From IMG/VR virus record IMGVR_UViG_3300033121_000578, positions 7,845 to 71,844 of that record: a stretch of DNA of 64,000 nucleotides. One strand, 5' to 3'. The notes under the pieces are model-generated. The model was given only the letters and a program-made list of their open reading frames with translations. It was not told where the DNA came from and searched no databases. Each line of letters begins with the position of its first letter. Positions within the stretch are counted from its first letter, which is position 1. The translations under genes and the position numbers were made by a program. Positions 12,977 through 64,000 of the stretch are shown here, in pieces. Source of the DNA: a virus.

Positions 12977-12979
12977 AAA

Positions 12980-15847: not shown

Positions 15848-15854
15848 TCCAACT

Positions 15855-25044: not shown

Positions 25045-25071
25045 AAATAAAATAAAATTAAATTTACACAT

Positions 25072-47753: not shown

Positions 47754-50700
47754 TGGCAGATTTACAAAATACATCAAGTGCGTCTACAAATATGGCAGGT
47801 AAGGCTGGTTTAGTTACTGACCTTAATCCGTCATTTGTATCTAATGAACAATACAGTCATGCCCGAAATGTTGTTAGAAATAGCAAAGAGGGAGACTTGG
47901 GTACTATAGGAAACGAGCCATCTAACGAATTTTGTTTTGAAGCTCCTTATAAAATAATAGGACACATATCTTTACCATCTGATGAGATTGTAATCTTCTC
48001 AACAAATGGAGCTAGCTCTGAGATAGGTATAGGAAATATACAAGACTGTTCCTATAGAAAGATATTGAATGACGACTGTCTTGCATTTAGTCAAGACCAT
48101 CCTATAACTGGTGTGGCAAAGCAGGATTTCCAAAAGGGGACAATTATTACTTTTACAGATAAGAAGAATCCAGTAAGAAGAATTGAGCTAAAGAATATAG
48201 ATAAAATCAAATCTTGTGATGATATTCTTTTATTTAGAAAGATAACTCACCCTTGCTATACTATAGAAAGAGGTCAAACTGGTAATATGCCAAACGGAAT
48301 GTATTCTGTAGCAATGGCATACGTTGTTGATAATCAGGTATTTACTGATTGGTTATCAGTTTCTAATAGAGTTCCTCTTTACTCTATATCTGGTTTAAAC
48401 TCTCTTGATATTAAGATTACAGATATAGACCAGCAGTTCTCTCACTTTGCATTGGTTGTTGTTGGTAATTATATTGACCCTACAACAAAGGGAGTTACTA
48501 AGTTGGCAAAGCAGGTTGGAATATACTCAACCAAGGTAAGAAATATATCAGTTTCTGACTTTGTTAATTCTACATATCTGGAGATTCCTTTAGGAAATCT
48601 AGTTGTGCAGAAGAAAAGCTGGCAGAAGGCTGGAATAATTGCATCTAATTCTAACTATTTAATGCTTGCTGATTTAGTATCTCGTCCAGAAGAAAACTAT
48701 CAGCTCAAAGCAATGAAGATAGAGGCTGAGTATGTTGTAGAGCAAGTTCCCTTTGATTACTATGAGAACCAAGGAGAAGACGTAGGATTCTATAGAGATG
48801 AGAACTATGACTTCTATATACAGGGTGTATATAATACTGGTGAATTAACAGAAAAGTGGCAAATCCCCGGAAGAAGAGGAGAGCCATCTGACTTCTCACC
48901 TGCATCTGGGCAAGATGTATATGAATTGGATGAGCAGTTTGTTGATTGTGAGAAGGATAAAAAGATACCTAGATGGAGAGTTGAGAATACTGCAGGAAAG
49001 ATGATTCCATACAATAATGAGTTTGTATGTAATAGAAGAGTATTAGGTAGAGGTAAGATGGGTTACTTCCAATCAACAGAATTGTACCCAGATAACCCAG
49101 ATATGTTTGGAGATAGTGCAAATAAGCCTATCAGATATCACAAAATGCCAGACGAATGTAAGGTACCACGCTACTCTATTGTCGATGGAAAGACTTATGT
49201 AAATATACTTGGTGTTCGTTTTAAGAATATAGAGAAGTTTGATAACCCAGATATAGTTGGGTATAAGATTACCCGTTCTGATAGAAAGGGAGGAAATGGT
49301 ACTGTTATAGCCAGAGGGCTGATGACAAATGTCCGCTCCTACTACGACCAGTCTTTCCAGCAAACAGTAATGTATGCAAACTATCCAGTAAATGACTTAT
49401 CTCCTGACCAATTCCTATCTTCTACACAGACTGTATATAAGAATGGCAAGGAGAATAACTTTACTCCTCTTAAGGATTATTATAAGGATAAATTTACCTT
49501 CTATTCTCCACACACGCTATTTGAACCAAGATATTCTCTTGGACAGGAAGTAAAGATTGAGACTGAAGAAATAGCTACAGTAACTGGAAAGTTTGAGAAA
49601 GTATACAATCATCCCCGCCAAAAGTTGATGAATCAGTTTGCTTTCTGGTTATCTGCAGCAGTTGGATTTATAGAGAGTGCACTTACAATAGCTGGTAAAT
49701 CTTCTCATAAATCTGAAAAAGAGTTCCAAATAAAACTAACTGGCGTAGATGCAGGTACTATTATTATAAATAGAGCAGGTCAAGATTTTGAAATAAAATC
49801 CGTAGAGGACTTAGTGAACTTAAATATAGTTGCCTTTATACAGAAAAAGATATTCGCACAAGATTTATCTGCTATTCAGATTATAACAAACATATTGGCT
49901 TTACTTGGTGCACTTGCTATAAAGATACCATATTCTGTATTCTCAGGAATAAGAGCAGCTGAACAGATTATGGATACTATCAGAAACTTTACTGGTTATA
50001 CAGATTATGTATATCAGTACAATGCTGAGGCAGTATTCAATCAATCCAAGTGTATAAGTGATGGTAATAAGAGAAGAAGATTACTTAAACAATTTACTTA
50101 TCTTCCATCAACAGTCGTTAGTGTAGATAGCAATGTATTCAACAATCTGCATAGAGAGAAGTCCGTACTCTTTGAATTAAATAAACCAATAATAGACCCA
50201 TCTACAAAGGATACATCTAGAAGAACCGCAAGTGGATTTGGAATATGTGGAAAGATGGATGATAAAACAGAGTCCGTAGGTTCTGCATTTTATGCTACAT
50301 CCAAGGCTATAAATCCTAATCAGTACGGAGCATTGGGTTCATCAGCACCTGTATCAATGCACAGTTGTCCTTTATCTTTTGGAGAAGAGCCAGTTGCTAC
50401 ATCACCAATTTTATATGGTGGAGACTGTATAATAGTTCGTTTCCAGTTCCAAAAGAGAATGCAGTTCTTCTCTCAGAATATAGCAAACACAAACTATCCA
50501 GATGGTACAGAGTATGACTATAGAAAATATAGAAACATAGCCTATCCTCGTTTCTGGATGGACTCTACAAAATATGATTTTTCTGAAATATTAGGTGGAA
50601 ATGTTATAAATTTTGCACGTTTTTCACGTACAACTACATCAAAACATAATCTTGATTGCAAAAAGAAGAATGACGGAAAGAATATAGCAAGAGTAGATGA

Positions 50701-52357
50701 TGCATATATGTATCTCTCAAACAATGCTGGATTAGACTTCTTTGTTGAGGCAGACTATAATGTTTCATTCAGGGAGAAGCAGTTGAATGATATGCCTTAC
50801 TACTCTAAAGAGAACAGAAATCTTTCTGATATCTTCCGTTCTGATAGATTGTTAGAATCAGAAGAGTTTAATATTTCCCGTGCTTTCTCTGACTTATATA
50901 CCACGGAGATATTTGCACCACAGCAGAGATATGACTTTAATCCTGCTGACCAAATTCCACAGGAGCAACCAAATTCAGTAATCTACTCACTACCCTCCTT
51001 CAATTTACAGAACGTAGATAACTGGCAATACTTCCTACCTGCAAACTACTTTGCATTTAGAGAAAGTGATTTTGGTCAGCTGACATCTATTCATAAACTT
51101 GACCAAGACCGCCTAATCTTCCTATTCTCAAAGTCTTCACCATATATCTCAATGGGTAGAGATTTCTTAGAGTTGGAACAGTCAGGTAGAAAGATAACAA
51201 TTGGGGATGGTGGATTGTTTGCACAAGACCCTCGTGAGATAATGCCCACAGATAATAACTATGGTGCATGTACCTCACGTTACGCATTTAGCAATACCCA
51301 TCTAGGTAGATTCTATCCCTCAACAAATCAGGGAAGAATACTGTCGTTCACAGAATCTCTGGACGATATTACAAGAAATGGAATGTCATACTGGTGCAAG
51401 AACTATATGCCAATCTTCTTGTATAAGTATTTCCCAAATTATCCAAAGGCAGAAAATCCAGTAAATGGAGTAGGTTACCTAACAGCTTTTGATTCTTTCT
51501 ATGAGACTATTTATATCTCAAAAAGAGACTTCTCACCAAAGAGAGAATATATCAAAGATATCACGTATGACGATAGGCTAGGAGTATTTAAGTACAGAGG
51601 AAATATAATAACACTTAGGGATAAGAGATACTTTAACGATATAAGCTGGACTCTATCATATTCTCCTCTTGAGAAAGGATTTGTTAGTTGGCACGATTGG
51701 CACCCAGACTGGATAGTACAAACAGATAACCACTTCCTTACTATAAAGGATAATGGAGTGTGGAAGCATAACGAGAGATTTGATAGCTTCTGTAACTTCT
51801 ATGGAGAAGATTTTCCATTCGAAATAGAGTTTGTATCAGCATCTGGACAAGAAGTTAATATCCCACGCTCTCTAGAGTATATCTTAGAAGTTTATAATTA
51901 TAAGAACTTCGGAAGAGACCGTTTCCATGTACATCATGAGAACTTCGATAGAATGATTGTACATAATACTGAGCAGATATCTCCTCTTCTAAATCTTATA
52001 TATAGAAGTGGTAATCCTGAGAATGATATTGTATACCCTAAGATAAACCCTTCAAACTCAATATCTTATGATGTATTGTTCTCTAAGGAGGAAAATAAGT
52101 ATCGTATAAATCAATTCTGGGATGCAGTAAAGGACAGAGGAGAGTTTTCTCTAGCAGATAACCATATCCTCCCAACAGACGAAAGTGGATATAAGCAGGT
52201 AGTAAATCCAGTAGCTATAGATATAAATAAACCAGAAGAACAAAGGAAGAAGTTCAGACACTACTGGACAAAATTCCGTCTTATCAAGAGTAAGTCGGGT
52301 AAAAATAAATTCATTACTAAGCTCTTTAATATTAAGAGGTTATTGTCTCAACATTAA
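47753..52357 (+). CDS. giant hypothetical virion protein (1534 aa)
   Basis: uninterrupted 4.6-kb ORF ahead of the lysin-domain proteins; no recognisable motif. Confidence 0.7.
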   Translation: MADLQNTSSASTNMAGKAGLVTDLNPSFVSNEQYSHARNVVRNSKEGDLGTIGNEPSNEFCFEAPYKIIGHISLPSDEIVIFSTNGASSEIGIGNIQDCSYRKILNDDCLAFSQDHPITGVAKQDFQKGTIITFTDKKNPVRRIELKNIDKIKSCDDILLFRKITHPCYTIERGQTGNMPNGMYSVAMAYVVDNQVFTDWLSVSNRVPLYSISGLNSLDIKITDIDQQFSHFALVVVGNYIDPTTKGVTKLAKQVGIYSTKVRNISVSDFVNSTYLEIPLGNLVVQKKSWQKAGIIASNSNYLMLADLVSRPEENYQLKAMKIEAEYVVEQVPFDYYENQGEDVGFYRDENYDFYIQGVYNTGELTEKWQIPGRRGEPSDFSPASGQDVYELDEQFVDCEKDKKIPRWRVENTAGKMIPYNNEFVCNRRVLGRGKMGYFQSTELYPDNPDMFGDSANKPIRYHKMPDECKVPRYSIVDGKTYVNILGVRFKNIEKFDNPDIVGYKITRSDRKGGNGTVIARGLMTNVRSYYDQSFQQTVMYANYPVNDLSPDQFLSSTQTVYKNGKENNFTPLKDYYKDKFTFYSPHTLFEPRYSLGQEVKIETEEIATVTGKFEKVYNHPRQKLMNQFAFWLSAAVGFIESALTIAGKSSHKSEKEFQIKLTGVDAGTIIINRAGQDFEIKSVEDLVNLNIVAFIQKKIFAQDLSAIQIITNILALLGALAIKIPYSVFSGIRAAEQIMDTIRNFTGYTDYVYQYNAEAVFNQSKCISDGNKRRRLLKQFTYLPSTVVSVDSNVFNNLHREKSVLFELNKPIIDPSTKDTSRRTASGFGICGKMDDKTESVGSAFYATSKAINPNQYGALGSSAPVSMHSCPLSFGEEPVATSPILYGGDCIIVRFQFQKRMQFFSQNIANTNYPDGTEYDYRKYRNIAYPRFWMDSTKYDFSEILGGNVINFARFSRTTTSKHNLDCKKKNDGKNIARVDDAYMYLSNNAGLDFFVEADYNVSFREKQLNDMPYYSKENRNLSDIFRSDRLLESEEFNISRAFSDLYTTEIFAPQQRYDFNPADQIPQEQPNSVIYSLPSFNLQNVDNWQYFLPANYFAFRESDFGQLTSIHKLDQDRLIFLFSKSSPYISMGRDFLELEQSGRKITIGDGGLFAQDPREIMPTDNNYGACTSRYAFSNTHLGRFYPSTNQGRILSFTESLDDITRNGMSYWCKNYMPIFLYKYFPNYPKAENPVNGVGYLTAFDSFYETIYISKRDFSPKREYIKDITYDDRLGVFKYRGNIITLRDKRYFNDISWTLSYSPLEKGFVSWHDWHPDWIVQTDNHFLTIKDNGVWKHNERFDSFCNFYGEDFPFEIEFVSASGQEVNIPRSLEYILEVYNYKNFGRDRFHVHHENFDRMIVHNTEQISPLLNLIYRSGNPENDIVYPKINPSNSISYDVLFSKEENKYRINQFWDAVKDRGEFSLADNHILPTDESGYKQVVNPVAIDINKPEEQRKKFRHYWTKFRLIKSKSGKNKFITKLFNIKRLLSQH

Positions 52358-52412: not shown

Positions 52413-52547
52413 TGAGTAAAGCCAAGACAGGAAAAGTAGGACCCAATAAAGGTAAGAAGTTTTCAGAAGAACACAAGAAGAAACTATCTGAGGCAAAGAA
52501 GAAACAATATAAATCAAGAATTATTAATGTGTATAACTATGTTTAGA
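52413..52547 (+). pseudogene. NUMOD3-motif remnant ORF (~44 aa), a relic of a homing-endonuclease DNA-binding domain
   Basis: GKKFSEEHKKKLSEAKKK matches the NUMOD3 pattern G..H/S.EE.K.K.S.A; preceded by a stop-interrupted same-frame fragment. Confidence 0.3.
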
Positions 52548-54524
52548 CCTAAAAAATGCATGAAATGTGGTGGAAAGCCAAAGATGCAACTCGCAGGAGA
52601 AGTACAATGCCCTCCCGGATTTAAATCCGATGGATTTGGTAATTGTATACCAGATGAAGCTCAGAAGATTAATTTTACAGACTACACAAAACTTCCTAGT
52701 GAGAAGATAAATATACCACCTCAACCATTGATAAAAGAGGAAGATGTTGTGGGCCCACCCCCTATAAATGAACCTGTTAATCAACCAGTATATAAGGATA
52801 GAATAGATGAAGGTATTGCAAAAGGTATAATATCTGGTAAAAAAGATGAGGATGGAAATGAAGGAAATGCAAGAGACCAATACAATGCTATATATGAAAA
52901 AAAGGATAAAGAACCTCAACCAAAGTTAGACCCATACTGGTTATTCAGAGGTTTCAGAAACGGCATGTCATGGTTAAGCGGAATGGTCGAGAGAGGTAGA
53001 CAGAATAGATATGACTGGATGCAGCAGACGGCTTTGGGTCAGATGAATCCTATGCCAACTGATGATTTCCAACCAAATCCATATAACTTATATATGCAGA
53101 AAGGTGGAAATCTTAAACATATTGTTAAAGAGTATAACAAATATACTAATGCTGCTCAGATGGATATGGGAGATGGTATGGTAGATGACCAAGGTCTAAT
53201 GAAAAAAGGTGGACATGTATCTATTGTCGAACTGTTAGCAGAAAGAGGACAAGATGCATCTTTTGATGCTAGAAAGAAGATGTTTGATAAGTACTTTGAT
53301 GGTAAATATTCTGGTACTGCTGAACAGAATATTGCTATGATAAAGATGCTGGAAAATCCTGTAAAGGACTCTCCATTTGTTGGAGCTATAGCAAAAGCAC
53401 CTACAAAAAATGAACAAGCTCCTAGAAAACAAGTAGCTCCACCTCCTGCAAAGAAAGTAGAACAAGTTAAAAAAGATACTCCTAAATCAACAGCATTTGC
53501 AAATGCAATAGGTGCAGCTGTTGCTACAATTAGCGGAGATAGAAGAGGTACACTAGAATCTGGAGTAGTTGTAGATAAAGGAACAAATACAGAGTATGTA
53601 ATAAAAGGAAATAAGATTGTGAAGTCATTTCCTGTGCTAACTGGTCAGGCTGGAAAAAATTCAAAAACAGACTCCAATAGTAATCCATTTAGCGTGGCCT
53701 ATCTAGAGAATCATCCAGAAGATAGGTCAACTCCAACTGGGTCATATTTAATGAATCCTAATCCAAATATTTATGGGTGGCCGGGATATAATTTACAAGG
53801 AATTCCTGCATATGGAGAAAGCGCTCAAAAAACAACTGTGGCAATGCACATAACATATGGAAGTGACCCAAAGGCTGGATTAAAGGGACATCCAGACCCA
53901 CAAGAGTTCAAAAGAAGAAATGCAGCATATACTATGTCACCTCAAAGCAGGTTTATGAGCTATGGATGTACAAATATGCAAGGTGAGGCTATTGATTGTT
54001 TAACTAAGGAATTCCCAAAAGGAGATACCGCAGTATATATAGATTCTAGAATACCAAAAGATAAAGATTTAATTCGTTCATTTCAAAAAGAAGAAGGAGG
54101 AGAAATGAAGAAGGGAGGATATGAGATTGATAGAATGATAATAACAAGAAAAATCTTACCACAACTTCTTCAGCTCGGAAGACTTGGTACATCCAAATAC
54201 AGAAATATGAAGAAGGGCGGAATTCATATTAATCCAGAGAATAAGGGTAAATTTACTGCCTCTGCTAAAGAACATGGAATGGGTGTACAGGAATTTGCAG
54301 AACATGTATTATCTAATAAAGAGGAATATTCTCCAACTCAGGTAAAAAGAGCTAACTTTGCAAGAAATGCAAGCAAATGGAATAGAAAAGCAGGAGGTTT
54401 AACACCAAATAAGGCTCGTCAGATATTACATGACAAAGAAATTCATGGTAAACCACTAACTGATAAACAAAGACGTTATTTTGGAGCAATGTCTAAAGGA
54501 CATACTAATTTTAGAGGAAAATAA
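52527..54524 (+). CDS. virion protein with C-terminal L,D-transpeptidase (YkuD)-like catalytic domain
   Basis: NKIVKSFPVLTGQAG...TPTGSYLM...VAMHITYG...SYGCTNMQGEAIDCL...GDTAVYI matches the YkuD pattern including the catalytic Cys. Confidence 0.6.
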   Translation: MCITMFRPKKCMKCGGKPKMQLAGEVQCPPGFKSDGFGNCIPDEAQKINFTDYTKLPSEKINIPPQPLIKEEDVVGPPPINEPVNQPVYKDRIDEGIAKGIISGKKDEDGNEGNARDQYNAIYEKKDKEPQPKLDPYWLFRGFRNGMSWLSGMVERGRQNRYDWMQQTALGQMNPMPTDDFQPNPYNLYMQKGGNLKHIVKEYNKYTNAAQMDMGDGMVDDQGLMKKGGHVSIVELLAERGQDASFDARKKMFDKYFDGKYSGTAEQNIAMIKMLENPVKDSPFVGAIAKAPTKNEQAPRKQVAPPPAKKVEQVKKDTPKSTAFANAIGAAVATISGDRRGTLESGVVVDKGTNTEYVIKGNKIVKSFPVLTGQAGKNSKTDSNSNPFSVAYLENHPEDRSTPTGSYLMNPNPNIYGWPGYNLQGIPAYGESAQKTTVAMHITYGSDPKAGLKGHPDPQEFKRRNAAYTMSPQSRFMSYGCTNMQGEAIDCLTKEFPKGDTAVYIDSRIPKDKDLIRSFQKEEGGEMKKGGYEIDRMIITRKILPQLLQLGRLGTSKYRNMKKGGIHINPENKGKFTASAKEHGMGVQEFAEHVLSNKEEYSPTQVKRANFARNASKWNRKAGGLTPNKARQILHDKEIHGKPLTDKQRRYFGAMSKGHTNFRGK

Positions 54525-54544
54525 AAACAATATTTATTAAAGTT

Positions 54545-55828
54545 ATGATGGATTTTATTTCTATGCTTGGCTATTCGGACAAAAGCCCCTATAAGCATAA
54601 CCCCTATCTGGATATACATACTCCAAACGGGTTAATTGATATGTCCAATACTTATATGGATTTAATAGGTATAGATAATAAGGGAAACAAGAAGAAAATG
54701 AAGGCAGGGAGAAAGAATCCATATAAGTTTGAGGGAGACATTGTTAGAGAAGTGCCAATGCAAGTAGGTGGATTGCACTTTCTAGAACCAAATGATAAAA
54801 AGTTGCCTAAAGGAATTGGTCCATATTTATCAAATTCCTCAGAATTAGCTACATCTATTGGGGGAGAAAATGGAGAACCTGCTTATTTAATACCATCAAT
54901 GAAATATGGAAGACCTCTTGATAATCCCTATTTGGAGTTTCTTCGTACTGGTGACCATCTTGGAGGTCCATTTAAGACTTGGCAAGAGGCAGATGAGTGG
55001 GAAAAAAATGTAAGGCATCCATATGTTGAAAAGGGAGAGTCTATCCCAACTCCTATAAGAAGATGGTCTCTTAAAAAGGGAGGAAATCCCTATCAAGAAG
55101 GAGGGATAACACCAGAACAAGTATTTGGTTTTCTGTTTGATGGTGATGATGAAAGGAAACAACAGAAAGAAGAATTAAGATTGCTTCAGGAAAGAGAGTT
55201 AGCTGTTGAGGAAAATGAAATGAGACAGGCTGCTCAGTTAAGAGAAATTGGAAGACAGAGGAAAATGATGGAGGAAGAAGCTCAATATAATTTAGCAATG
55301 GGTCTTGCAATGGAGGACGGAAATCTTGATTTAAATTCACCACGTTTTACAAATACGACACCTATTGTACAATCCTCTAAACCATTTGTAGCAACAAATA
55401 CTGACTTATATGGTACGGCAAAGCAGTATGAAGGAACTCCATATAAATTTGCAGGAACTGGTAATGATGGAATAGATTGTTCTGGATATGTTTGTAGAGT
55501 AGTTGGCTTACCTCGTACATCATCTGAAGAAATAGTAAAGAATGCTCCAAACTTCCGTCAATTTACTGGAAACCCCTATGATTTCAAAGAAGGAACAGTT
55601 ATAGGATTTGATACAGGAATTGCTTCATTTGAGAAGAAAGAGGGAAATAAAAGAAAATATGGTATGGACCACGTTGGAGTAATAGTTAGAAAACCTGAAA
55701 CAGGAGAGTTGTTATATACACATTCTGCAGGAAGCACTGGAGTTAAAACAATGACAATTCCTGAAATGTTAAGAAAATATAAAAATTCCAGAATCTTCTT
55801 AGGAGATTACGGACAAAAAACTAAATAA
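54545..55828 (+). CDS. virion protein with C-terminal NlpC/P60 cysteine peptidase domain
   Basis: YKFAGTGNDGIDCSGYVCRVVGLP (catalytic Cys), MDHVGVIV (His), YTHSAGS. Confidence 0.75.
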   Translation: MMDFISMLGYSDKSPYKHNPYLDIHTPNGLIDMSNTYMDLIGIDNKGNKKKMKAGRKNPYKFEGDIVREVPMQVGGLHFLEPNDKKLPKGIGPYLSNSSELATSIGGENGEPAYLIPSMKYGRPLDNPYLEFLRTGDHLGGPFKTWQEADEWEKNVRHPYVEKGESIPTPIRRWSLKKGGNPYQEGGITPEQVFGFLFDGDDERKQQKEELRLLQERELAVEENEMRQAAQLREIGRQRKMMEEEAQYNLAMGLAMEDGNLDLNSPRFTNTTPIVQSSKPFVATNTDLYGTAKQYEGTPYKFAGTGNDGIDCSGYVCRVVGLPRTSSEEIVKNAPNFRQFTGNPYDFKEGTVIGFDTGIASFEKKEGNKRKYGMDHVGVIVRKPETGELLYTHSAGSTGVKTMTIPEMLRKYKNSRIFLGDYGQKTK

Positions 55829-55829
55829 A

Positions 55830-57746
55830 ATGGGAGTAGCAGATAACAGAACCTACAAAAATGAATATCACTTTACTGATGATAGCAAACCTACATCAGA
55901 GCAGCATCCTTCTATAGAGAAGGACCCTAAAGTGAATACAACTATAAAGAAGAACCCCTATCGTTCTAACGTAGAGATAGAGGGAGGTGAGGTTGTTTTA
56001 CAGCCTGACCTATCTGCTCTCTTTAAAGCAAAGGGAAAAAGACACGCACAGGGTGGTATGGATGTACTACTTAAGCCAGATTCATTTGTATTCTCTGACT
56101 ATAAAGAGTTGGAGATAGATGAGGATGAAGCTGAAGACTTCGAATTAAAAGAAGGAGGTACCCCTGCAAAAACGCTTAAGAAGAATATAGACATTAAGCA
56201 CTATAATACCCTTATACAGAATATAGATAACCCTTATAAGGATGATTTAGCTAAAAAGTCATCTGCAAGAATGTTGGAAAAATATATAAAAATGTTAGGA
56301 AACATTGCTTATTTGCAGGAAAATAAGAAAGGTTTCCCTCAAGGTTTACCAGATTTCTCTATTGGAACAGCTCCTATGGAAAATGAAGAATTAGAAGACC
56401 AAATGGATGAAAATAAACAATATATGAAAGCTGGAGGTATAACAAAAAATCCATATAAGGCTCAGAAAGGAGTAACTATCACAGATGATATTTTTAATAC
56501 TGCAAAGAAAAAGAAGCTAGATAATGCAGAAGGATGGACACTTATTGGAGAAAGAGATGGTGCAAAAATCTACCAAAAAACAACAACTGGTGAGGTAAAA
56601 GCAATTCCTGCTCCAAAAGTTGTTCAGAAATCTAATTTATCAGATGAGCAATATTTAAAGATGTTATCTGAAGGTAGTCTGTCACAAATGTCTGGAGACC
56701 AATTAGTTGCAGACAAAAGAATAAGTCCGTATTATAAAACTATATGGGATACAAAATATAGAAAGTCTCCAGATACTGTAGATTATGGGTATATGCAGGA
56801 TGCAGCAGGTACTTTTCCAACTGGTTGGTATAATGATAAAACAGGTCCTCATTTTAGAATTCCAGATAACATGAGAGGTGAGCTTGAACAAGAAGTCAAA
56901 CAAGAAGTCTCTGGACCAACCGTTGAAAAGCAAGAGTATACACCTCAGGGAGTAAAGAGAGCAGATTGGCAATTTACGCCTTGGCAGAAATTGTCCCAAG
57001 CTTATAACTGGGGACAATACGCTGGTGTTCAACGATATATGCCATTCCGTTCCCGTTATAATGCTACCTATGTGGACCCTGCTTTGGTAAACCCAGAACA
57101 GGCTATTGGAGATATGAAGGGTATGACAAATCAACAACTAGCATCCTTATCTACACTTTCTCCTATTCTTAGAAATGCTCAGGCTGCTGGAAGTTTTGGA
57201 CAACTTCTTGGACAAATTGGCTCAGTTAGAAGTCAGTATGATAACCAGAATGCTCAAATTCTTAATCAAACTCGTCAATATAATAATCAGGTTAAGAATA
57301 ACGAAAGCTTGGTTAATATGGGTAATGACCAGCAATACTATACTCAGGCAGTAGAGGGAAGGAAGAATTTTGAGAACATGAGAACATATACAGCTAACCA
57401 AGCTATGAACAATGTGATGAGAGATGTAGAAACTAACCAAAAGTTAGCATATAACCTTCTTACACAGAATAACCCAGCCTACAACTTTGCTTGGAAAACT
57501 GGTAGATTTACTCGTACAAATAAGAGTATTCTTGATGTACAGAATTCAGGAAAAGGTGATTATTTAGAAAATTTTGTTGGAGAAATAACAAAAGATTGGG
57601 ATAAAATGGATACAGACCAGAGATTAAACTTCCTAAAAATTCTCACAGCAAAAGGGTTTACTCCATCTGGAAACACATCTAATCCATTTGCTGGAATGAA
57701 TTTACCATCTAAGAAGGGTGGTAAAATAAAGAATCCCTATAAATAA
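55830..57746 (+). CDS. large hypothetical virion protein (638 aa)
   Basis: ORF in the large-protein module. Confidence 0.6.
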   Translation: MGVADNRTYKNEYHFTDDSKPTSEQHPSIEKDPKVNTTIKKNPYRSNVEIEGGEVVLQPDLSALFKAKGKRHAQGGMDVLLKPDSFVFSDYKELEIDEDEAEDFELKEGGTPAKTLKKNIDIKHYNTLIQNIDNPYKDDLAKKSSARMLEKYIKMLGNIAYLQENKKGFPQGLPDFSIGTAPMENEELEDQMDENKQYMKAGGITKNPYKAQKGVTITDDIFNTAKKKKLDNAEGWTLIGERDGAKIYQKTTTGEVKAIPAPKVVQKSNLSDEQYLKMLSEGSLSQMSGDQLVADKRISPYYKTIWDTKYRKSPDTVDYGYMQDAAGTFPTGWYNDKTGPHFRIPDNMRGELEQEVKQEVSGPTVEKQEYTPQGVKRADWQFTPWQKLSQAYNWGQYAGVQRYMPFRSRYNATYVDPALVNPEQAIGDMKGMTNQQLASLSTLSPILRNAQAAGSFGQLLGQIGSVRSQYDNQNAQILNQTRQYNNQVKNNESLVNMGNDQQYYTQAVEGRKNFENMRTYTANQAMNNVMRDVETNQKLAYNLLTQNNPAYNFAWKTGRFTRTNKSILDVQNSGKGDYLENFVGEITKDWDKMDTDQRLNFLKILTAKGFTPSGNTSNPFAGMNLPSKKGGKIKNPYK

Positions 57747-57798
57747 CTTCAAAAATTAATTTGCTAAGAATCAATTAATTATATAAATTTGTAAAAGA

Positions 57799-60378
57799 AT
57801 GCCAGCAACTTCACCATATTCAGGTAATGATTATCAAGCAGTTAGCAACTTTAGACCTTATGAGTTGCCTGTAAATGATATATTTAAGGCCATCAGTGCT
57901 CAGAACCAATTCTGGGATGCTGGTGCAGCCCGTGTAAAAAGCTACTATGATAAAGGTCTCAACCTTGATTTAACTTTAGAAGAGAACAGAAAAATCAGAG
58001 ACCAGTTCATGAAGGATGCTGAAAAGGAAATGATAAAGCTTTCTACCATGGATTTGGCAGACCCATCTGTCCAAAGAAAAGGAATGTCTATAATGTCTCC
58101 ATTATTTAAGGATAAGGCAATTCTGTATGATGACCAGCTTACAAGAGTAAAGAAACAAATCTTTTCTGAAGCAGATTCATATAGAACAAAGAAGCTTACT
58201 CCTAATGGAATAGAGGGAGAGGGATTTTCTCAAAAGAATCTAGCATATGCCCTAGATGGATTTGAAGAATTTAATGAAAAGACAGCTAGAGATGAAAATG
58301 TCCTAAAAGGACTTTATGGAAAGTTAGCAAATAAAAAGTATATTCCCCAGTACGATATGACTAGGGAATTTACAAAAATTATAAATAACTGTAAGGGTTC
58401 TTCTGAGTTTAAGCAAGATGTTGCTGATGGGAATTATTTATACTTTGATGTATCCTCTAAAGAGGGAGCAACATCTAGTGAGATGACTAACTGTTTTATG
58501 ATGGGAATGTCTCCTATGGCAAAACAACAGTTATCCATAGATGGTTGGGCCTATTATAAGTCTAGCAGTAATCCATATACAGATTTGGCCAACGACCACT
58601 ATAACATGAAGGTGGGACCATATAAGGAAAGAAAGGAAGCCATAGAAGCAACCATAAAAGGAATTGAAGATAAGGCTGTAAAGACAGACGAAGATAAGAA
58701 AAATATAGCAAATCTTAAAAAAGTCCTTGATGCGGCTGCTTCTGATTATAATGAGGCAGAAATTGAGTTTAAGAATATGACTTCTGATAATGGATTAGAG
58801 TATGCAAAGAGCAACTTCCAATCGTTAGCAGGTAGTATATACATGAATAGATTTCTCAAGAATGTAGGAGAAACCTATAAGAATGATAATGTTACACGTA
58901 AGTTAATTCCAAATGCTGCAGGAATTGCCCAATTTAATGCTCACGAAAGAGAGCGTCTAATGTATATTCAGGATAACCTTGAGACGAATAGAATTATGCT
59001 TAAGGCAAAACTTGACTATGAGTTAGAGGTAGCAAAGGGAAATGCTGGAATTACACCTCTTCCTTTAAACCCAAGAGTTGCTCCGGGAGAAGACAATGTT
59101 ACATTTACTCCAGAAATGCAAATGGAGGAAGAAGGATTAGCATGGAATGAATACTCTAAGGCTTATGAAACTATTAGGGAATATATAGCTCAAAAAATAG
59201 ACCCAACTAAACCTGTTACACATACTCAGATTCTTAACTATGCAAATAGTGTAGCAAAAGATAATCCAGAATTTAATCAACTTTTGGATGTATATAATAA
59301 GTCAAAAGAGGCTTACGAAGAAAAGGTCTTATTTAGAAAGGGCGTAGAAGAGAAAATAAAACTTTCAAATAAAGAAGCTTATCAAAAGCTTTCTAATGAA
59401 AAAATTACTTTAGCAGATGGGACTGTAGTTTCAGGAGCAGATATAGCAGATGGAATGAAAGAATATAAGGCAACTACGGCTTCTACTGCATTTGGAGGAA
59501 AAGAAACTAAAAGAGATAACCAAAAGGTATGGTATCACACATTCACCTTTGTTGCACCAAATGGTAAAAAATATAACATTTCATCTAATGTGCTATTATC
59601 CGGTGATAAAAGAAAAATATATGATTTATTTAGAAAGTACCAAGATTATGTTTCTGATAATAGAAAATCACTAAATGAAGCGTACTCAAAGAAATGGTAT
59701 GAGGCAAATAAGTTTTATACACCTAACTTTAATATCGAAAAGAATATAACTCTGAGAAACTATATAGCTTCCGTAACAGGATTAGGTGATGCTCCCGGAG
59801 GAAAAGACGGGTATAGGGTATTTGGTATGGATAAAAATGCAACTAGTATTTATGTAAATCCAACTGATTCAGAAGGAAGAGATATTAACAGCAAATCAGT
59901 AATAGAAAGTTTGGTAAAAAGAGCCCAAGGTAGAAGCGGAAGTGTAGATGTTGGTATACAGAGGATAGGTAGTGGTGAGTATGCAATAAGACTTACCCCT
60001 AGAGCACCCGGTGTTATTCCTGCACTACCGAATATGCCAACCCAGCAACAACAAAAAGACATAGAGAAGCTAAGAAACTTCCAAACTCATATGGAGGGAT
60101 TATTAAAAGGAAATTACGCATCATCTGAAGATTTAAAAGATGGTACAGGAAATCCTTACTCTATAAGAAATGTAGTACTTACAGCTCCGAACGGACTAAA
60201 GATTAAGGTACACGCACAGCTGGCAAACGGAAAAGTATCTCTTATTCCATCATATGAAAATAAAGAAGGAGGATGGACACCAAATAATCGTTCTCACTCT
60301 GACCCAGAGGAACTAATCCTAAGATTAGGAGACTTTTATGGACAACCTCAATCACAAAATCTATTCAATTTGAGATAA
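57799..60378 (+). CDS. large hypothetical virion protein (859 aa)
   Basis: ORF in the large-protein module. Confidence 0.6.
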   Translation: MPATSPYSGNDYQAVSNFRPYELPVNDIFKAISAQNQFWDAGAARVKSYYDKGLNLDLTLEENRKIRDQFMKDAEKEMIKLSTMDLADPSVQRKGMSIMSPLFKDKAILYDDQLTRVKKQIFSEADSYRTKKLTPNGIEGEGFSQKNLAYALDGFEEFNEKTARDENVLKGLYGKLANKKYIPQYDMTREFTKIINNCKGSSEFKQDVADGNYLYFDVSSKEGATSSEMTNCFMMGMSPMAKQQLSIDGWAYYKSSSNPYTDLANDHYNMKVGPYKERKEAIEATIKGIEDKAVKTDEDKKNIANLKKVLDAAASDYNEAEIEFKNMTSDNGLEYAKSNFQSLAGSIYMNRFLKNVGETYKNDNVTRKLIPNAAGIAQFNAHERERLMYIQDNLETNRIMLKAKLDYELEVAKGNAGITPLPLNPRVAPGEDNVTFTPEMQMEEEGLAWNEYSKAYETIREYIAQKIDPTKPVTHTQILNYANSVAKDNPEFNQLLDVYNKSKEAYEEKVLFRKGVEEKIKLSNKEAYQKLSNEKITLADGTVVSGADIADGMKEYKATTASTAFGGKETKRDNQKVWYHTFTFVAPNGKKYNISSNVLLSGDKRKIYDLFRKYQDYVSDNRKSLNEAYSKKWYEANKFYTPNFNIEKNITLRNYIASVTGLGDAPGGKDGYRVFGMDKNATSIYVNPTDSEGRDINSKSVIESLVKRAQGRSGSVDVGIQRIGSGEYAIRLTPRAPGVIPALPNMPTQQQQKDIEKLRNFQTHMEGLLKGNYASSEDLKDGTGNPYSIRNVVLTAPNGLKIKVHAQLANGKVSLIPSYENKEGGWTPNNRSHSDPEELILRLGDFYGQPQSQNLFNLR

Positions 60379-63300
60379 ATGGAAGAACCAATTCTAACAA
60401 ATACTCTATCGGAAGGAGCGGTTGGTATATTTGATGAGAATATACTTGCAGCAAGACTAGATACAATGGAGAGAAGAGAAGCACTCTTCTCTGATTTTAA
60501 TGTTCCAGCATTAGAGTTGGCACCTATACAACCTATTGTTCCAAAGGATTTGAGAACAGATGACCTAATTACATCTAAAAATCTTCCAAAAATACAGGAA
60601 TATCTTACATCTTCTGACCCAAAATTAAATAAACTAGCAAATGACTATCTTGACCAAAAGCTAGCAACCAATAAGGCATATACCCATGGATATGGTATGC
60701 CACGTATGGTAAGATACCAAGAGGGACAAGATAAATATACAGAGGACAAGTGGTTTAGAGAAAGTGTATATACAAGATATGGATTTGACCCAGATATAAG
60801 TTTGGCAGAAAATGAGGATTGGATACATAAGAATGTATGGGAAAACTTTAGCACTTTTGGAAAGTTGTGGAGAGGAGTTGGAACATTTGCTGGTAGAGTA
60901 TTGGTGAAAACAGCAACAGGATTAGTCTCTATGGTTGCAATACTCCCTCAGTTTGTAAAGAATCTAGGAGAAGAGGGAGTAGAATTATTTGGAGGTCCTA
61001 AGAATGAGTTCTTTGCAGATATGAGCGAGAACGTAATCGTTAGGGCTATGGAGAACGTAGATGACTACACAAAACAGTGGATTCTTCCTACCTATAAATC
61101 AATTACGTATGACGGAAAAGGAGCATTTGCTAAACTAGGTGACCCCTACTTCTGGATGAATGAGGGTGCTGATGGTATTGGATTTCTCCTTCAGTTTGCT
61201 GTTCCTGCTACAGCTTTTGGTAAGCTGACACAATTAGCAAGAGTTGGAAAAGCTTCTAAATTTTGGGCTGCAGGAATCGGTGAAACAGCTACAGCATCAA
61301 GAGCATCAAAAGTGGCTGGCACTGTAGTTGAAACACTTACAGGTTCTAGGAATGTAGGAGGTATAACTGCACACGTATTTAATACAACAATGGAATCTCT
61401 GATTGAAACAAATGAAGGTTTCAAGAAGAATGTGCAGGATTTAATGAAGAAGGGATATAGTGAAGAAGAGGCTAAGAAAATAGCTTCACAGTTTGCACCT
61501 TCTCAGTTTTGGTTGAATATGGGAATTCTTACTGCATCAAATGCATGGGAAAACAAATTCTTCCAGAAACTTGCTAAAAACAGGAGAGGTGTTGCAGGTT
61601 ATGCTGACGAAGCAGGTCTAATAAAAGAAGTAGCTAAGCAGAATAGAAGACTACCATATTACGGTAAGATGTGGACTAAGGCAGTTCTTATGGAAGCCTA
61701 CTGGGAAGAAAATGCCCAGTTAGCAGCACAGAGAGCAGCCGTTGGAGAATATGTAAGAATGGGAGATGATACCAAGTATGGTAAGACCGAGATGATAGAT
61801 AGAGCAACTGGTTTTGTAGGAAGCCTATCTGCATTTGGTAAACAATTAGTGAAGCAAACAGCTGATGCTTCTTGGTGGGGAAAGGGTGATAGAGAAGCAG
61901 CAGAATCTATAATGGCAGGTGCCATGATAGGTATATTAGGTTCGACTTCTTTCAGTAAGTTCACTCCATCTAATGAGCCAAGTAAAGCACCTGAAGAAAC
62001 AGATGTTAAGAGAAATAAGGATGGAAACTATGAGGCTGCTAATAAGAAATCAAATTGGCAAGCTGTAAGAGATGCAATACCATTTATTGGTAAGGGTGGT
62101 GAGAGAAAGAATCAAATCAGAGCTAATCAGAGATTGGTTGCTGATGTAATGAATGCAAGAGATGCATTCTTAAGTACATCTATAGGAGAGGGTATATTTG
62201 ATGACCAAGGAAATATAGATAAGGAAAAAGCTGCAGCAAAAGTAGCAGAGTTATCTGAAAAGCTACAGAAGATTGAATTATTTAAGAAAAGAGCTATTAC
62301 AATAGATGATATAACTGACCCCAATAAAAGAGCTGTTTTACAATATGAATTGTTTGCAGATTATTTAAAGGGTCATATTCTAAACGGAACAGGTAATGAT
62401 TTAGTCTCAAGAATAGAAAAGTGGGGAAATAAGACACCTGAGGAATTAGCACTATATGGAGTAACTGGAGAACTTGCAGAAGACCCACAGAGATGGGCAA
62501 ACATTGCAAAGGACTTAATAAAGGACTATGAAAAAATAGAAAGCATCCGTTTTGAGAATAATACAAAAGAATCGGTAGATGACTTCTTAGCAAAAGAAAG
62601 AGCTATAAAAAGTTATATCTATACATTTAATGCAAAGATTAAATCATACTCTGATGCACAAAGACAACTAGATGCTATATTAAGTGAGTTTTCTCCATTT
62701 AGAGAAAAGGGTGCTAATCAAAATCCTTTCATTGCTTCATACAATGAAAAGGTAATGTTAAGAAATGCTCTTGTTAAAACGAGTGATAACTTAGTTGCAG
62801 AGGATAGTAAATTTGCACAGCGTGATAAGTTTCTTAAAGATAAGATAGAGCAATTAAATAAAGAAATTGAGGAACTAGATGGTACCCTACCTGAGCATGA
62901 GAAAGTAGATGGAGGATTTGCTGTACAAGGTGAAATAGATAATACAGCATTGGAAAACGCACTTGAAGGATTTCCTGATTATCTTGATATAGCTCTTGAG
63001 AATCTCCAGTTAAAGGATGCTATTGCTGACTTGGAATCATATGTAGGTAAACTAAAAGACCCAAAAACAGCTATAGCTAGATTTAATGAATTGGTTGATG
63101 AGTCCTCTAAAATCTTAGAGAAAGAGAATGAGCTAAACGATAAACTCAGAGACGCAAAGTATACAGAAGAGAAGATTAGTGAAATGTCTACTGAGGAGAA
63201 GAAGGAGGCTATAAAGGCATTACCTGCCAAAGAGGAAGAGGAAAAGAAAGAGGAAGAAGAGAAAACAGTATCCGAACTTGAGAAGTGGGAAAACTTCTAT

Positions 63301-64000
63301 AATAAGCACGGTCTTGCTGCATTTGGTGCATATATCTCAATGCAAATTAAAAAAGATTTGGGAGTAACAGAAGATTTTCCAACAGTAGAAGAACTTGCTA
63401 TACATTTACTATCAATTATAAATGAAAAGCTTGATAAGGATGGTTACTCACCTGATTTAACAAATAAGAGAGACTATATTAATTTCTACTTAGAAAAAGC
63501 CAGACAGGAGGGTTTAAATAAAAAGACAGAGGTTACTCCTGAGGGTACTACATTTACAGAAGACCAACTTCTAGAGATGGCTTTGGGTGAAATTGAGGAA
63601 GCTGAACAAGAATATAACGAAGCAGTAGCAGCACTTCCTGAGGAAAACTTTGAGGAAGAAAAAGCAAAACTAGAGGCAGCAAGAGATGAGAAGATAAAGG
63701 AAATTAATAGCAAGTATGGTATTGCTGAAACTCCATCAATAGAAGCAGGTGGTGCCACAGAATCAGATATAGAATCAGAGAAACAAAAAATAACAACTGA
63801 TGAATTTAAAGAGCTTGTTAGATTAGCCAAGTTCTTTATTGAAAGTCCAAAGGAACCAACAGTTGCAGGAAGTGTAATAGGAAAGTATCCTTCTCTTTTT
63901 GATGCTATTAGTAAGATAGAAAGAAGAAGACAAGAAGATTTAGATAGACCTTATAACAAAAAGAAACAAGAACTTTCTGATATAACTGAAATAGCTTCTT
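60378..64000 (+). CDS. very large hypothetical virion/ejection protein, 3'-truncated by the window edge (at least 1207 aa)
   Basis: frame from ATG 60378 read codon by codon to 64000 without a stop; absent from the ORF track only because no stop lies in the window; hydrophobic stretches and long coiled coils. Confidence 0.6.

Follow-up and report, generated by a model that had tools for sequence, protein, structure and literature searches.

The 3′ part of the viral DNA stretch analyzed here (the window, 64,000 nucleotides long) raises the question of what two different peptidoglycan-remodelling domains, one of the YkuD-like L,D-transpeptidase type and one of the NlpC/P60 type, do on large proteins that are encoded downstream of tail genes, and whether together they amount to a two-enzyme strategy for breaching or resealing the cell wall, as suggested in the original prediction. 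The evidence from gene order, module architecture and relatives' loci (designated L001, L003 and so on) leads us to favor, with moderate confidence in the explanation as a whole, a cargo (ejection-protein) block with swappable wall-enzyme cassettes, in which the YkuD domain more likely acts as a hydrolase or exchange enzyme.

Genomic context of the probable cargo block

The window belongs to a large crAss-like phage that most resembles phages of Flavobacteriia and has a genome size, judged by the closest relative, of approximately 160 kb; a near-identical relative sits on a 160-kb contig. Among the other ORFs of the window, matches to the PHROGs of the crAss-type TerL, portal and MCP were detected, and megablast with the entire region as query matched no GenBank phage. 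All features described below are on the + strand. The tail genes encode the ring protein R2 of the crAss-type tail barrel (45705..46382; Pfam CrAss_Ring_2, PF25702, E = 1.7e-15), a probable ring protein R1 (46387..47229; CrAss_Ring_1, PF24228, E = 2.3e-4, below the gathering score), the equivalent of which in L006 is also recorded as CrAss_Ring_1, and the 1534-aa muzzle protein, the distal tail gatekeeper (47753..52357; crAss_MUZ, PF25731, E = 6e-29; phrog_37948), with tblastn matches that include the region of phi4:1 gp042. The interval between R1 and the muzzle is occupied by a 174-aa SPFH/Band_7 domain protein (47229..47753; E = 3.7e-27), the position of which is retained in L003 and L006. 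The 1534-aa ORF and the five large ORFs reported to follow it are all present as described; these five encode proteins of 665, 427, 638 and 859 aa (hereinafter p665, p427, p638 and p859) and a giant protein similar to phi14:2 gp67. The ORFs of the block are all encoded on the + strand and almost contiguous, and the order from the ring proteins through the muzzle and p665/p427/p638/p859 to the giant protein agrees with the gene order in the Cellulophaga phages phi14:2 and phi4:1.

The location of p665 and its neighbors directly after R2, R1 and the muzzle is the position of cargo (ejection) genes in crAss-like phages. Genes in the same position in phi14:2 and phi4:1 are annotated in GenBank as virion proteins found by MS/MS; gp041, the product of the first post-muzzle gene of phi4:1, contains a tail-lysozyme domain (PF18013, E = 5e-32), and phi14:2 g070 carries the portal-binding crAss_CARG1 domain (PF25725), for which there was no Pfam match at E ≤ 0.1 in p665, p427, p638, p859 or the giant protein. 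In ΦcrAss001, the cargo proteins C1 (gp45) and C2 (gp46) are likewise encoded directly after the muzzle and before giant RNA-polymerase-associated proteins, and gp45 has been detected in virions by mass spectrometry and partly resolved by cryo-EM (Bayfield et al., 2023; PMC10172136). Residues 371-428 of gp45 are homologous to a module of p665 (aa 561-624; 54207..54398; profile A7 against 7qog_M, E = 5.8e-22; phrog_20603) that also yields tblastn matches in gut crAss-like phages. This module is bounded by MKKGG and RKAGG in p665, and G-G motifs flank its counterpart in gp45 as well. No other part of p665 matches gp45, and neither the predicted transmembrane helix nor the portal-binding domain of gp45 was detected in p665. 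Thus, position, the gp45-like module and the MS/MS-annotated positional homologues bear out the designation of these proteins as putative ejection or cargo proteins, and we infer from these comparisons that the capsid and tail barrel most likely house the post-muzzle proteins until infection, when these are pushed out through the tail. Neither a signal peptide nor a hydrophobic segment or transmembrane helix was found in p665 or p427, so that enzymes of this kind, if active in the periplasm, would need another exit from the cytoplasm.

The three proteins that follow add to this context. p638 (55830..57746) is a homologue of phi4:1 gp040 (blastp E = 2e-4 and 2e-3), which is annotated in GenBank as a virion protein by MS/MS; its synteny is kept in 10 loci, and comparison of its thin alignment with phi14:2 g070 and g069 using hhalign was not significant (probability ~1%). 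It contains two conserved x-x-G-G motifs, with G202-G203 and G630-G631 invariant in alignment A4, which includes homologues down to 21% identity, and it terminates in KKGGKIKNPYK. p859 (57799..60378) is found in the same position in L006, L007 and L013-L016 by tblastn, and a weak match (E = 0.039) is its sole link to phi4:1 gp039; no transmembrane helices were found in p638 or p859. The giant protein, of which the N-terminal 1207 aa are encoded before the frame exits the window (60379..64000), is 2084 aa long in L003 and contains moderately hydrophobic segments at aa 175-193, 266-284 and 507-525. Its relationship to phi14:2 g067 is the only link between window proteins and phi14:2 in the blastp search. 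The proposal that RNA polymerase motifs be sought in this last ORF points to the wrong gene: the protein is gp67-like, and in the distant relative L021, it is the next gene that encodes a 3153-aa homologue of the phi14:2 gp66 RNA polymerase.

A divergent YkuD domain within a module mosaic

The first protein in the cargo position, p665 (52527..54524), probably starts at Met5 (52539), in agreement with the 661-aa homologue P0001 and the family consensus. A BLAST module map against 93 homologues presents it as a mosaic: an N-terminal four-Cys segment is followed by a widely shared module (aa ~65-224), then by the YkuD cassette and finally by three modules at the C-terminus. Hence p665 does not end in the YkuD domain, as had been stated, but continues with three more small modules (aa 527-665). 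The YkuD cassette (aa ~229-531; 53218..54104), delimited by blastn against L003 and by its junction sequences, combines a wall-binding-type three-helix module with the YkuD domain. The former (aa 230-310; 53214..53456) is of the DUF3597/phrog_2307 type (phrog_2307, E = 7e-10; weak match to DUF3597), and its position is filled by LysM or PG_binding_3 in homologues; its BFVD matches, a phage lysozyme and a DUF3597 protein, have non-significant E-values. In an AlphaFold2 model of aa 224-530 (mean pLDDT 79.6), helices of this module lie at 233-276 (pLDDT 88-94) and are followed by a low-confidence linker, and pLDDT exceeds 88 across most of the catalytic domain.

The presence of a YkuD-like L,D-transpeptidase domain (aa 340-523; 53544..54095) is upheld by Pfam (PF03734 at aa 347-505, 32.2 bits against a gathering score of 23.4) and by a Foldseek search of the PDB, in which the top 16 matches are all L,D-transpeptidases, as are nearly all of the 50 matches listed (probability 0.75-1.0). 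The best of these (YkuD 1y7m, Ldtfm and LdtMt1/2) have a probability of 1.0, and the TM-scores are moderate (TMt 0.3-0.62). Searches of PDB chains by sequence, with p665 or a YkuD-family profile, retrieved no L,D-transpeptidase, and the profile matched no solved structure; the fold search alone found L,D-transpeptidases. The predicted SYGCTNM sequence is in place, with S478-Y-G-C481-T-N483 at 53958-53975, preceded by His441 (53847-53849) and followed by a conserved second cysteine, Cys491. The 44 sequences compared all retain His441 and Asn483, with conservation of Cys481 reaching at least 90%, and the same pattern holds in 61 clade representatives. The motif departs from the canonical form, H-X-X(14-17)-[S/T]-H-G-C-h-N, both in having tyrosine in place of the second histidine and in the 36 residues that separate His441 from Ser478, compared with the canonical 14-17; given these departures, the substrate may differ.

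The clade to which this domain belongs is small, with 162 clusters out of 1.84 billion proteins, and is confined to viral or virus-like contigs; two genome scans detected no relative in GTDB genomes, and a tblastn search with the YkuD domain alone against 50,697 GenBank phages gave no match. YkuD domains are very rare in viral sets in general, with three matches in BFVD. The clade motif is S-Y-G-C-x-N, not SHGC: the position of the motif histidine is occupied by Tyr, Trp, Phe or Gln in about 98% of the clade, and by His in two of approximately 126 members. Of 61 representatives, 45 match PF03734 and a single one contains crAss_CARG1. In homologues, the YkuD domain follows DUF3597, LysM or PG_binding_3, and glucosaminidase or GH24 is sometimes present in the same protein. 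Ten loci, with muzzle identities of 22-70%, encode YkuD between the muzzle and homologues of p638/p859, and another lineage encodes it between the portal and MCP.

The NlpC/P60 protein and its carrier modules

The second protein in the cargo position, p427 (54545..55828), consists of an N-terminal beta module, a highly conserved module, a long helix and an NlpC/P60 cysteine peptidase domain (aa 285-421; 55397..55807). The assignment of NlpC/P60 to the C-terminal end of p427 proved correct: PF00877 matches aa 297-393 (23.4 bits against a gathering score of 23), phmmer retrieves 3npf (E = 3.6e-4) and LytE, and MepS, LytE and YkfC-like chains are on top of the Foldseek matches (probability 1.0, TMt 0.6-0.75). 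Cys312 of the DCSG motif (55478-55480) and His376 (55670-55672) are invariant in 11 homologues, and His393 (55721-55723), which aligns with the third histidine of 3npf, is present in nine of these. Through this domain p427 also matches phrog_329, a ‘minor tail protein’; tblastn with p427 against GenBank phages gave no match. Thus, as judged by sequence and fold comparison, the YkuD and NlpC/P60 domains are both real and retain their catalytic residues.

A cassette at aa ~74-181 of p427 (54752..55081), flanked by MQVGG and LKKGG, lacks a match to any family and yet is shared, at 55-75% identity, by more than 100 proteins, in which it is fused to GH24, glucosaminidase, SLT, tail lysozyme, YkuD and ART domains (the ART-PolyVal match, in one relative, is weak and below the Pfam cut-off). 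Besides most of these, p427 carrier modules are elsewhere joined to Peptidase_M15_3 (PF08291, a precomputed match), and several second-position homologues carry a precomputed PF26571 (‘VldE’). Because the same carrier modules are fused either to undisputed lytic domains or to YkuD, the two kinds of domain share one slot. A 489-aa insertion in the L001 homologue was considered as a pair of CHAP/NlpC-type and SLT-type domains, and this assignment was dropped after Pfam, PHROGs and the PDB yielded nothing.

Conserved linkers and probable cassette exchange

Both p665 and p427 are strings of small modules linked by the motif [M/F/Y]-x-x-G-G, which occurs five times in p665 against 0.37 expected. 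In L003, where the flanking DNA is 95-99% identical, blastn shows that the YkuD cassette and the aa ~74-181 module of p427 are precisely missing, with the deletions falling exactly at MKKGG on both sides of the YkuD cassette and at MQVGG/LKKGG. Furthermore, 58% and 71% of homology breakpoints lie no more than 8 aa away from such a motif, compared with 14% and 10% expected. About half of the family lacks the YkuD cassette, and other relatives combine YkuD with different modules. The existence of a near-identical locus without the cassette implies that YkuD is an accessory and that the two enzymes do not form an obligate pair; the proposed two-enzyme strategy therefore gives way to a mix-and-match repertoire. 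As part of the explanation that we prefer overall, recombination at the linkers probably exchanges the enzyme modules as accessory cassettes, each lineage having its own set.

The linkers also admit another interpretation, namely that they are protease sites at which a cargo polyprotein is cut into free modules, at maturation or after ejection. Cleavage of structural precursors at G-G|X is known from adenovirus and ASFV, and the motif in question is enriched, conserved at the protein level with differing codons, invariant as x-x-G-G even in p638 homologues with as little as 21% identity, located at module borders and in low-pLDDT segments and shared with the surroundings of the common module in ΦcrAss001 gp45; processing of multi-domain virion proteins into units has, moreover, been proposed by Iyer et al. 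(2017; PMC5512222). However, the window yielded no protease, its proteins lack the HExxH zincin motif that is present in phi14:2 g070 and phi4:1 gp041, and the tail and capsid regions of gp45 were modelled as one chain (PMC10172136). The same data can be accommodated by a docking motif or by a hinge that gives the chain flexibility as it threads through the tail, and we consider proteolytic processing possible although unlikely.

Predicted activities of the wall enzymes

Within the favored scenario of ejected hydrolytic cassettes, the NlpC/P60 and YkuD modules would reach the periplasm by ejection and have the stem peptides of peptidoglycan as their targets. Enzymes of the NlpC/P60 family typically cut the gamma-D-Glu-mDAP bond. 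The YkuD enzyme, with its Cys/His apparatus, would target, via an acyl-enzyme intermediate, the L,D bond between mDAP and D-Ala in tetrapeptide stems and, acting as an L,D-carboxypeptidase or L,D-endopeptidase, could loosen the wall locally for the ejection conduit, in the manner of Tlde1 or Csd6. In the T6SS effectors Tlde1 and in Csd6/Pgp2, which are YkuD-fold L,D-carboxypeptidases, the fold serves wall damage or trimming as opposed to wall synthesis, and Tlde1 enters the target periplasm from outside without a Sec signal. There is no detectable sequence relationship between these proteins and the domain described here, which has S-Y-G-C-x-N and the 36-residue His-to-Ser spacing in place of HXX14-17(S/T)HGCh and would be delivered by phage ejection. 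In Tlde1a, the H129A substitution of the motif histidine leaves D-amino-acid exchange at the wild-type level, greatly reduces crosslinking and partly reduces L,D-carboxypeptidase activity (PMC9638812). By analogy, hydrolysis or exchange is most likely the direction of the YkuD reaction and is more probable than crosslink formation.

An opposite reading, which we regard as distinctly doubtful, is that YkuD is a true transpeptidase used constructively, tethering ejected proteins to mDAP or re-crosslinking the wall around the conduit. The second of these options corresponds to the resealing of the original prediction, whose link to 3-3 crosslinks or lipoprotein attachment gained no support from the present analysis. 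In E. coli, ErfK, YbiS and YcfS tether Lpp to mDAP via the C-terminal lysine of Lpp; here, the L,D-transpeptidase Cys/His/Asn set is intact, the linkers are rich in lysine, and p665, p427 and p638 all end in lysine, as do 39% of the homologues in both families compared with 8-10% lysine overall. Tlde1a itself forms some 3-3 crosslinks (PMC9638812). Nevertheless, the C-terminal lysine signal is not independent evidence because the homologues share C-terminal modules, and L003 retains the same lysine-ending partners without YkuD. Moreover, the motif histidine that supports crosslinking in Tlde1a is replaced, YkuD fills a slot held elsewhere by plain hydrolases, and no acceptor has been identified. 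The specific version in which the Cys481 acyl-enzyme would pass the stem to a cargo lysine, stapling ejected proteins to the wall and yielding a wall-anchored conduit across the periplasm, strikes us as very improbable; candidate acceptors would be the C-terminal lysines of p665/p427/p638 or the lysine-rich M-K-K-G-G linkers.

It also seems improbable that p665 and p427 are endolysins or lysis accessories acting from within rather than ejected virion proteins. Both proteins do show the endolysin-like combination of a catalytic and a binding-type module, no separate endolysin was recognized among the 31 other ORFs of the window, and a positional homologue in the gut phage cr127_1 is annotated ‘putative endolysin/lysozyme’. 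The latter protein, cr127_1 gp46, has no Pfam lysozyme match and is a homologue of gp45 (cargo protein 1), which led us to reject that annotation. Against a lysis function, the genes lie inside the muzzle-to-RNA-polymerase block in every relative, share a module with gp45 and encode multi-module proteins of 427-916 aa; phi14:2 has an endolysin, g077, apart from its cargo block, and no adjoining holin or other small membrane protein is seen within the window. Finally, the altered motif, with Tyr for His and a long insertion, might suggest a catalytically dead wall-binding module, but this is extremely unlikely given that conservation of the Cys, the upstream His and the Asn is 90% or higher among the sampled clade representatives and that a separate binding-type module is already present N-terminal of YkuD.

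Relationship to known virion-associated enzymes

Wall enzymes are well known in virions, examples being the T7 gp16 transglycosylase, the two-domain phi29 gp13 and the NlpC/P60 motifs of mycobacteriophage minor tail and tape-measure proteins. In all of these and in phi4:1 gp041, as predicted for the proteins analyzed here, the enzyme is part of a structural or ejected protein encoded in the virion module and presumably opens the wall locally at entry. However, no catalytic type known to us among virion-associated peptidoglycan hydrolases has the YkuD fold, and we found no report of an L,D-transpeptidase fold in phage particles; a further difference from these hydrolases is that a conserved linker delimits the enzymes described here as cassettes. 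Hence the claim that the presence of both enzymes on virion proteins is unusual does not apply to two wall enzymes as such but stands for the YkuD fold in that role, and it is a predicted YkuD-fold member in the form of a linker-bounded cassette that appears to be new.

A further parallel is with the polyvalent proteins of phages and conjugative elements, which are likewise multi-domain, rapidly shuffled and co-delivered with DNA, and include wall-attacking domains (Iyer et al., 2017; PMC5512222). The text of that survey lists lysozyme, SpoIID-like and DD-peptidase domains, with the words ‘transpeptidase’ and ‘NlpC’ absent from it, and a conserved G-G linker does not appear in the passages compared; a zincin (MPTase) module is missing from the proteins described here. 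Neither the article on the structure of ΦcrAss001 (PMC10172136) nor the Crassvirales review of 2023 (PMC10136315) nor the 2021 comparative genomic analysis (PMC7886860) contains the word ‘peptidoglycan’ in its text, whereas p665 and p427 carry YkuD and NlpC/P60. According to a 2026 paper on phage N4, ejection needs a wall-hydrolysing activity, and none was found in the N4 ejection proteins.

Implications

The conserved linker provides a marker of module borders, and the small YkuD clade, with its changed active-site motif and its restriction to viral and virus-like sequences, is amenable to biochemical assay; if the module is a hydrolase, it would add one more catalytic class to phage lytic enzymes. 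Furthermore, the natural YkuD-plus and YkuD-minus variants, otherwise near-identical, offer a ready genetic comparison. These findings bear on how crAss-like phages cross the envelope of Bacteroidota.

Genomic context and cargo position

Directly downstream of the muzzle gene (1534 aa; 47753-52357), and on the same plus strand, the window encodes p665 (665 aa; 52527-54524), p427 (427 aa; 54545-55828), p638 (638 aa; 55830-57746), p859 (859 aa; 57799-60378) and a giant protein of at least 1207 aa, whose frame is open from 60379 to the window end. These sizes and positions agree with those originally reported; the frames from the muzzle to the giant almost touch, the local G+C content is ~35%, and the start of p665 is likely Met5. 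The muzzle, immediately 5′ of p665, is recognized by Pfam (crAss_MUZ, E 6e-29), as are crAss-type tail ring protein 2 and, with a weak match, ring protein 1 just 5′ of it. Between ring protein 1 and the muzzle lies a gene for a 174-aa SPFH/Band_7 protein (47229-47753; Pfam E 3.7e-27), which keeps this position in the relatives L003 and L006; this family would not be expected within a tail gene module. PHROGs for TerL, portal and major head protein are found elsewhere in the window, and the same trio occurs in another crAss-like contig. No nucleotide-level match to the region was detected among GenBank phages. Its muzzle shares 23-26% identity with the muzzles of the Cellulophaga phages phi4:1 and phi17:2, Flavobacterium phages, the gut phage csAssE-Sib and a Leptolyngbya phage. 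The contig carrying a close relative of the window is 160,369 bp long, and those with more distant relatives span 163-171 kb, consistent with the large-genome branches that Yutin et al. (PMC7886860) describe within the crAss-like assemblage.

In ΦcrAss001, the muzzle gene is followed by those for the cargo proteins C1 (gp45) and C2 (gp46) and then three giant RNA-polymerase-associated proteins, all detected in virions (PMC10172136), and the products of genes at equivalent positions in phi14:2 and phi4:1 are annotated as virion proteins by MS/MS. The giant of the window is related to phi14:2 gp67 (tblastn E 4e-9; pairwise 8e-15), and in a distant relative the gene that follows its homologue encodes a 3153-aa relative of gp66, the RNA polymerase of phi14:2, with an alignment extending to a DNDID motif. 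Moreover, p638 is related to phi4:1 gp040. The most direct link to characterized phages is provided by a module of p665: a profile of residues 555-630 and their homologues matches residues 371-428 of ΦcrAss001 gp45 (E 5.8e-22). Given that the Pfam search found the portal-binding domain crAss_CARG1 in none of the five proteins, p665 is best regarded as a cargo-position protein with a C1 module, not as a C1 orthologue. Neither signal peptides nor hydrophobic segments were detected in p665 or p427. Within the cargo block, moderately hydrophobic segments were found only towards the N-terminus of the giant (aa 175-193, 266-284 and 507-525; window 60901-60957, 61174-61230 and 61897-61953), the first two in the region shared with phi14:2 gp67 (aa 172-447); judging from sequence, the ejection machinery may use them to insert into the membrane.

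Several annotations of related loci deserve comment. The first post-muzzle proteins of phi14:2 (g070; 14820-16601 of the locus) and phi4:1 (gp041; 22884-25103), labeled just ‘tail protein’ in GenBank, each contain two HExxH (zincin-type) motifs within modules common to both, and gp041 additionally carries a tail-lysozyme domain at its N-terminus (PF18013, E 5e-32). Gp46 of the gut phage cr127_1 (8995-10725 of its locus), a ‘putative endolysin/lysozyme’ in GenBank, is a homologue of C1 (E 2e-5) with no lysozyme match in Pfam, so that the annotation is unsupported and probably incorrect.

Elsewhere in the window, positions 1-8000 form a compositionally distinct block (G+C 42-43%, vs 31-41%, mostly ~35%, in the remainder); its GC skew is negative and its genes are on the minus strand. 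Further signals of mobile endonucleases come from a weak LAGLIDADG_3 match inside a 591-aa ORF (16150-17925), which may represent an intein or an endonuclease insertion, and from two ORFs with HNH domains (37758-38240 and 38491-39084). Homing endonucleases vary even among the near-identical relatives: a GIY-YIG/NUMOD3 gene separates the muzzle and p665 homologues in L001 (9004-9609), a LAGLIDADG gene separates the p638 and p859 homologues in L003 (12938-13717), and a 44-aa NUMOD3 remnant is called in L003 at the site equivalent to that of the GIY-YIG gene, which in the window is the spacer 5′ of p665 (52414-52548).

Wall-enzyme domains of p665 and p427

The original prediction of a YkuD domain in p665 is borne out by Pfam, fold and catalytic residues, although the domain is internal and not at the end of the protein: three small modules follow it. 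PF03734 matches aa 347-505 (32.2 bits vs a gathering score of 23.4), and residues 224-530, modeled with AlphaFold2 from 44 sequences, have a mean pLDDT of 79.6, with values >88 across most of the catalytic domain. In a Foldseek search of the PDB, the top matches are all L,D-transpeptidases (B. subtilis YkuD, Ldtfm, LdtMt1 and LdtMt2; probability 1.0), with TM-scores that are only moderate. Among homologues, His441 and Asn483 do not vary, and conservation of Cys481 is at least 90%. N-terminal to the domain, p665 has a three-helix module of the DUF3597/phrog_2307 type, in a slot that homologues fill with LysM or PG_binding_3.

The NlpC/P60 peptidase predicted in p427 is likewise confirmed by agreement of Pfam (aa 297-393; 23.4 bits vs a gathering score of 23), fold and catalytic residues. 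Phmmer matches p427 to the Bacteroides YkfC-like structure 3npf and to LytE, and the best structural matches of the model are MepS, LytE and related chains (TMt 0.6-0.75). All 11 homologues compared have Cys312 and His376, and nine of them also have His393.

A distinct YkuD clade of viral or virus-like contigs

A phmmer search with the YkuD domain against 1.84 billion cluster representatives retrieved only 162 proteins at E <= 1e-3, of which 124 reach E <= 1e-10; apart from a few short, probably partial, entries, they are long and multi-modular. The domain was found on eleven IMG/VR contigs, only three viral structures in BFVD resemble it, and nothing was detected by tblastn in 50,697 GenBank phage records or, for the clade, in a GTDB set with one genome per species. 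The domain is encoded between the muzzle and the homologue of p638 or p859 in 10 loci (muzzle identity 22-70%), and in another lineage a DUF192-YkuD protein is encoded between the portal and major head protein; wherever the flanking sequence sufficed, the clade was always in a virion gene module. Its members have S-[Y, less often W/F/Q]-G-C-[V/I/T]-N in place of the canonical (S/T)-H-G-C-h-N, the motif His being present in only 2 of ~126, and an insertion extends the His-to-Ser spacing to 36 residues.

Module shuffling, the G-G linker and cassette turnover

Module maps made by BLAST for 93 homologues of p665 and for p427 (120 listed of 189 found) reveal both proteins as chains of modules that are reordered and recombined in other proteins. 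The p427 module at aa 74-181 (~105 aa; window 54752-55081) is 55-75% identical in >100 otherwise divergent proteins, far more conserved than its neighbors, and has no family or structure match. Elsewhere it is fused to NlpC/P60, GH24 lysozyme, glucosaminidase, SLT, phage tail lysozyme and YkuD domains, as well as to Peptidase_M15_3 (PF08291, a precomputed match) and an ART-PolyVal domain (weak, under the Pfam cut-off).

Module borders are marked by a linker, [M/F/Y]-[Q/K/A]-x-G-G, which at every border in p665, p427 and p638 takes the form [M/L/S/R]-[K/Q]-[K/A/V]-G-G (MKKGG, MQKGG, MQVGG, LKKGG, MKAGG, SKKGG and RKAGG). It occurs at 53094-53108, 53199-53213, 54105-54119, 54207-54221 and 54384-54398 in p665, at 54758-54772 and 55070-55084 in p427, and at 56424-56438 and 57708-57722 in p638; none was found in p859 or the giant. 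The five copies in p665 compare with 0.37 expected, a count equalled in 0 of 1000 shuffles, and the linker is enriched in p427 and p638 as well. Across 194 homologues, Met is 6.8-fold enriched three residues N-terminal to G-G. The linker is conserved as protein while its codons vary, is invariant at two sites in the p638 family at identity as low as 21%, and falls in low-confidence segments of the models of both p665 and p427; the gp45 copy of the shared module is flanked by D-G-G and F-G-G. Homology breakpoints, which are not statistically independent, fall within 8 residues of a linker in 58% of cases for p665 (14% expected) and 71% for p427 (10% expected). The linker may be a hinge, a docking signal, a recombination site or a protease site.

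Comparison with near-identical genomes captures such cassettes in the act of gain or loss. L003, with flanks 95-99% identical in nucleotide sequence, lacks exactly 53218-54104, such that ...LMKKGG|HVSIVELL...EMKKGG|YEIDRM in the window corresponds to ...MMKKGG|YEIDRM, and also lacks 54752-55081, the p427 module between MQVGG and LKKGG. L001 (96-99% identical) retains YkuD and has 489 extra residues in its p427 homologue (11800-13266), exactly at the linker border of the conserved module; this insertion has no sequence match in Pfam, PHROG or PDB. By eye, its Cys/His and G-x-G-Q-I motifs hint at additional wall enzymes. Because YkuD is missing from L003 and from about half of the p665 family, it is an accessory module, and its pairing with NlpC/P60 in the window is one combination among many. 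Of the original interpretation, the cargo setting and the presence of both domains hold, whereas a two-enzyme strategy in the sense of an obligate pair does not, and the suggested links to 3-3 crosslinks and lipoprotein attachment are not supported.

The C-terminal residue of p665, p427 and p638 is Lys (FRGK, QKTK and NPYK; codons 54519-54521, 55823-55825 and 57741-57743), as in 39% of homologues in both families vs 8-10% Lys overall, with W-L-x-K-Y-K and F-R-G-K recurring. The C-terminal Lys of the lipoprotein Lpp is the acceptor of L,D-transpeptidases; the resemblance could be accounted for by common ancestry of the C-terminal modules.

Proposed mode of action

The domain identities, conserved catalytic residues, cargo-block position, gp45 module, lack of signal peptides and cassette behavior are established. 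We propose that the proteins travel inside the particle and would be extruded partly unfolded, as proposed for the ΦcrAss001 cargo (PMC10172136), a route to which small modules on flexible linkers are suited. The enzyme modules would then refold in the periplasm and attack stem peptides, with the NlpC/P60 domain of p427 predicted to cut the gamma-D-Glu-mDAP bond, as is typical of its family, and the YkuD domain of p665 to target the mDAP-D-Ala bond via a Cys481 acyl-enzyme. For YkuD, a hydrolytic or exchange outcome is favored by analogy, and is the weakest link of the mechanism. It is favored because the domain fills a slot held by undisputed hydrolases in sister proteins, because YkuD-fold enzymes that damage or trim the wall are known (Tlde1, Csd6 and Pgp2), and because a motif His mutant of Tlde1a retains D-amino-acid exchange at the wild-type level, with crosslinking greatly reduced and L,D-carboxypeptidase activity partly reduced (PMC9638812).

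One alternative, considered less likely, is that YkuD is a constructive transpeptidase, which might include covalent anchoring of Lys-ending cargo. It is also considered unlikely that p665 and p427 are endolysins: both are encoded in the cargo block, and p665 carries the gp45 module. The G-G linkers could be processing sites, given their place at module borders, where breakpoints of homology also cluster. That YkuD is a dead binding module sits poorly with its conserved catalytic residues, the altered motif notwithstanding.

Implications

That virion or ejection proteins can contain wall hydrolases is well established, and multi-domain, shuffled, injected ‘polyvalent’ proteins have been described (PMC5512222). 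A 2026 survey mentions a YkuD domain in a 15-domain endolysin of a gut phage. Peptidoglycan is not discussed in the open-access text of the crAss-like phage literature examined. What appears to be new is a YkuD-fold enzyme as a virion or ejection wall enzyme, in a clade of its own with a changed motif and, among the sequences searched, found solely on viral or virus-like contigs; a conserved linker delimiting cassettes also appears new, as does the finding that crAss-like cargo-position proteins carry wall-enzyme domains at all. The existence of natural YkuD-plus and YkuD-minus variants, together with a small and well-defined clade, makes these questions open to direct testing.
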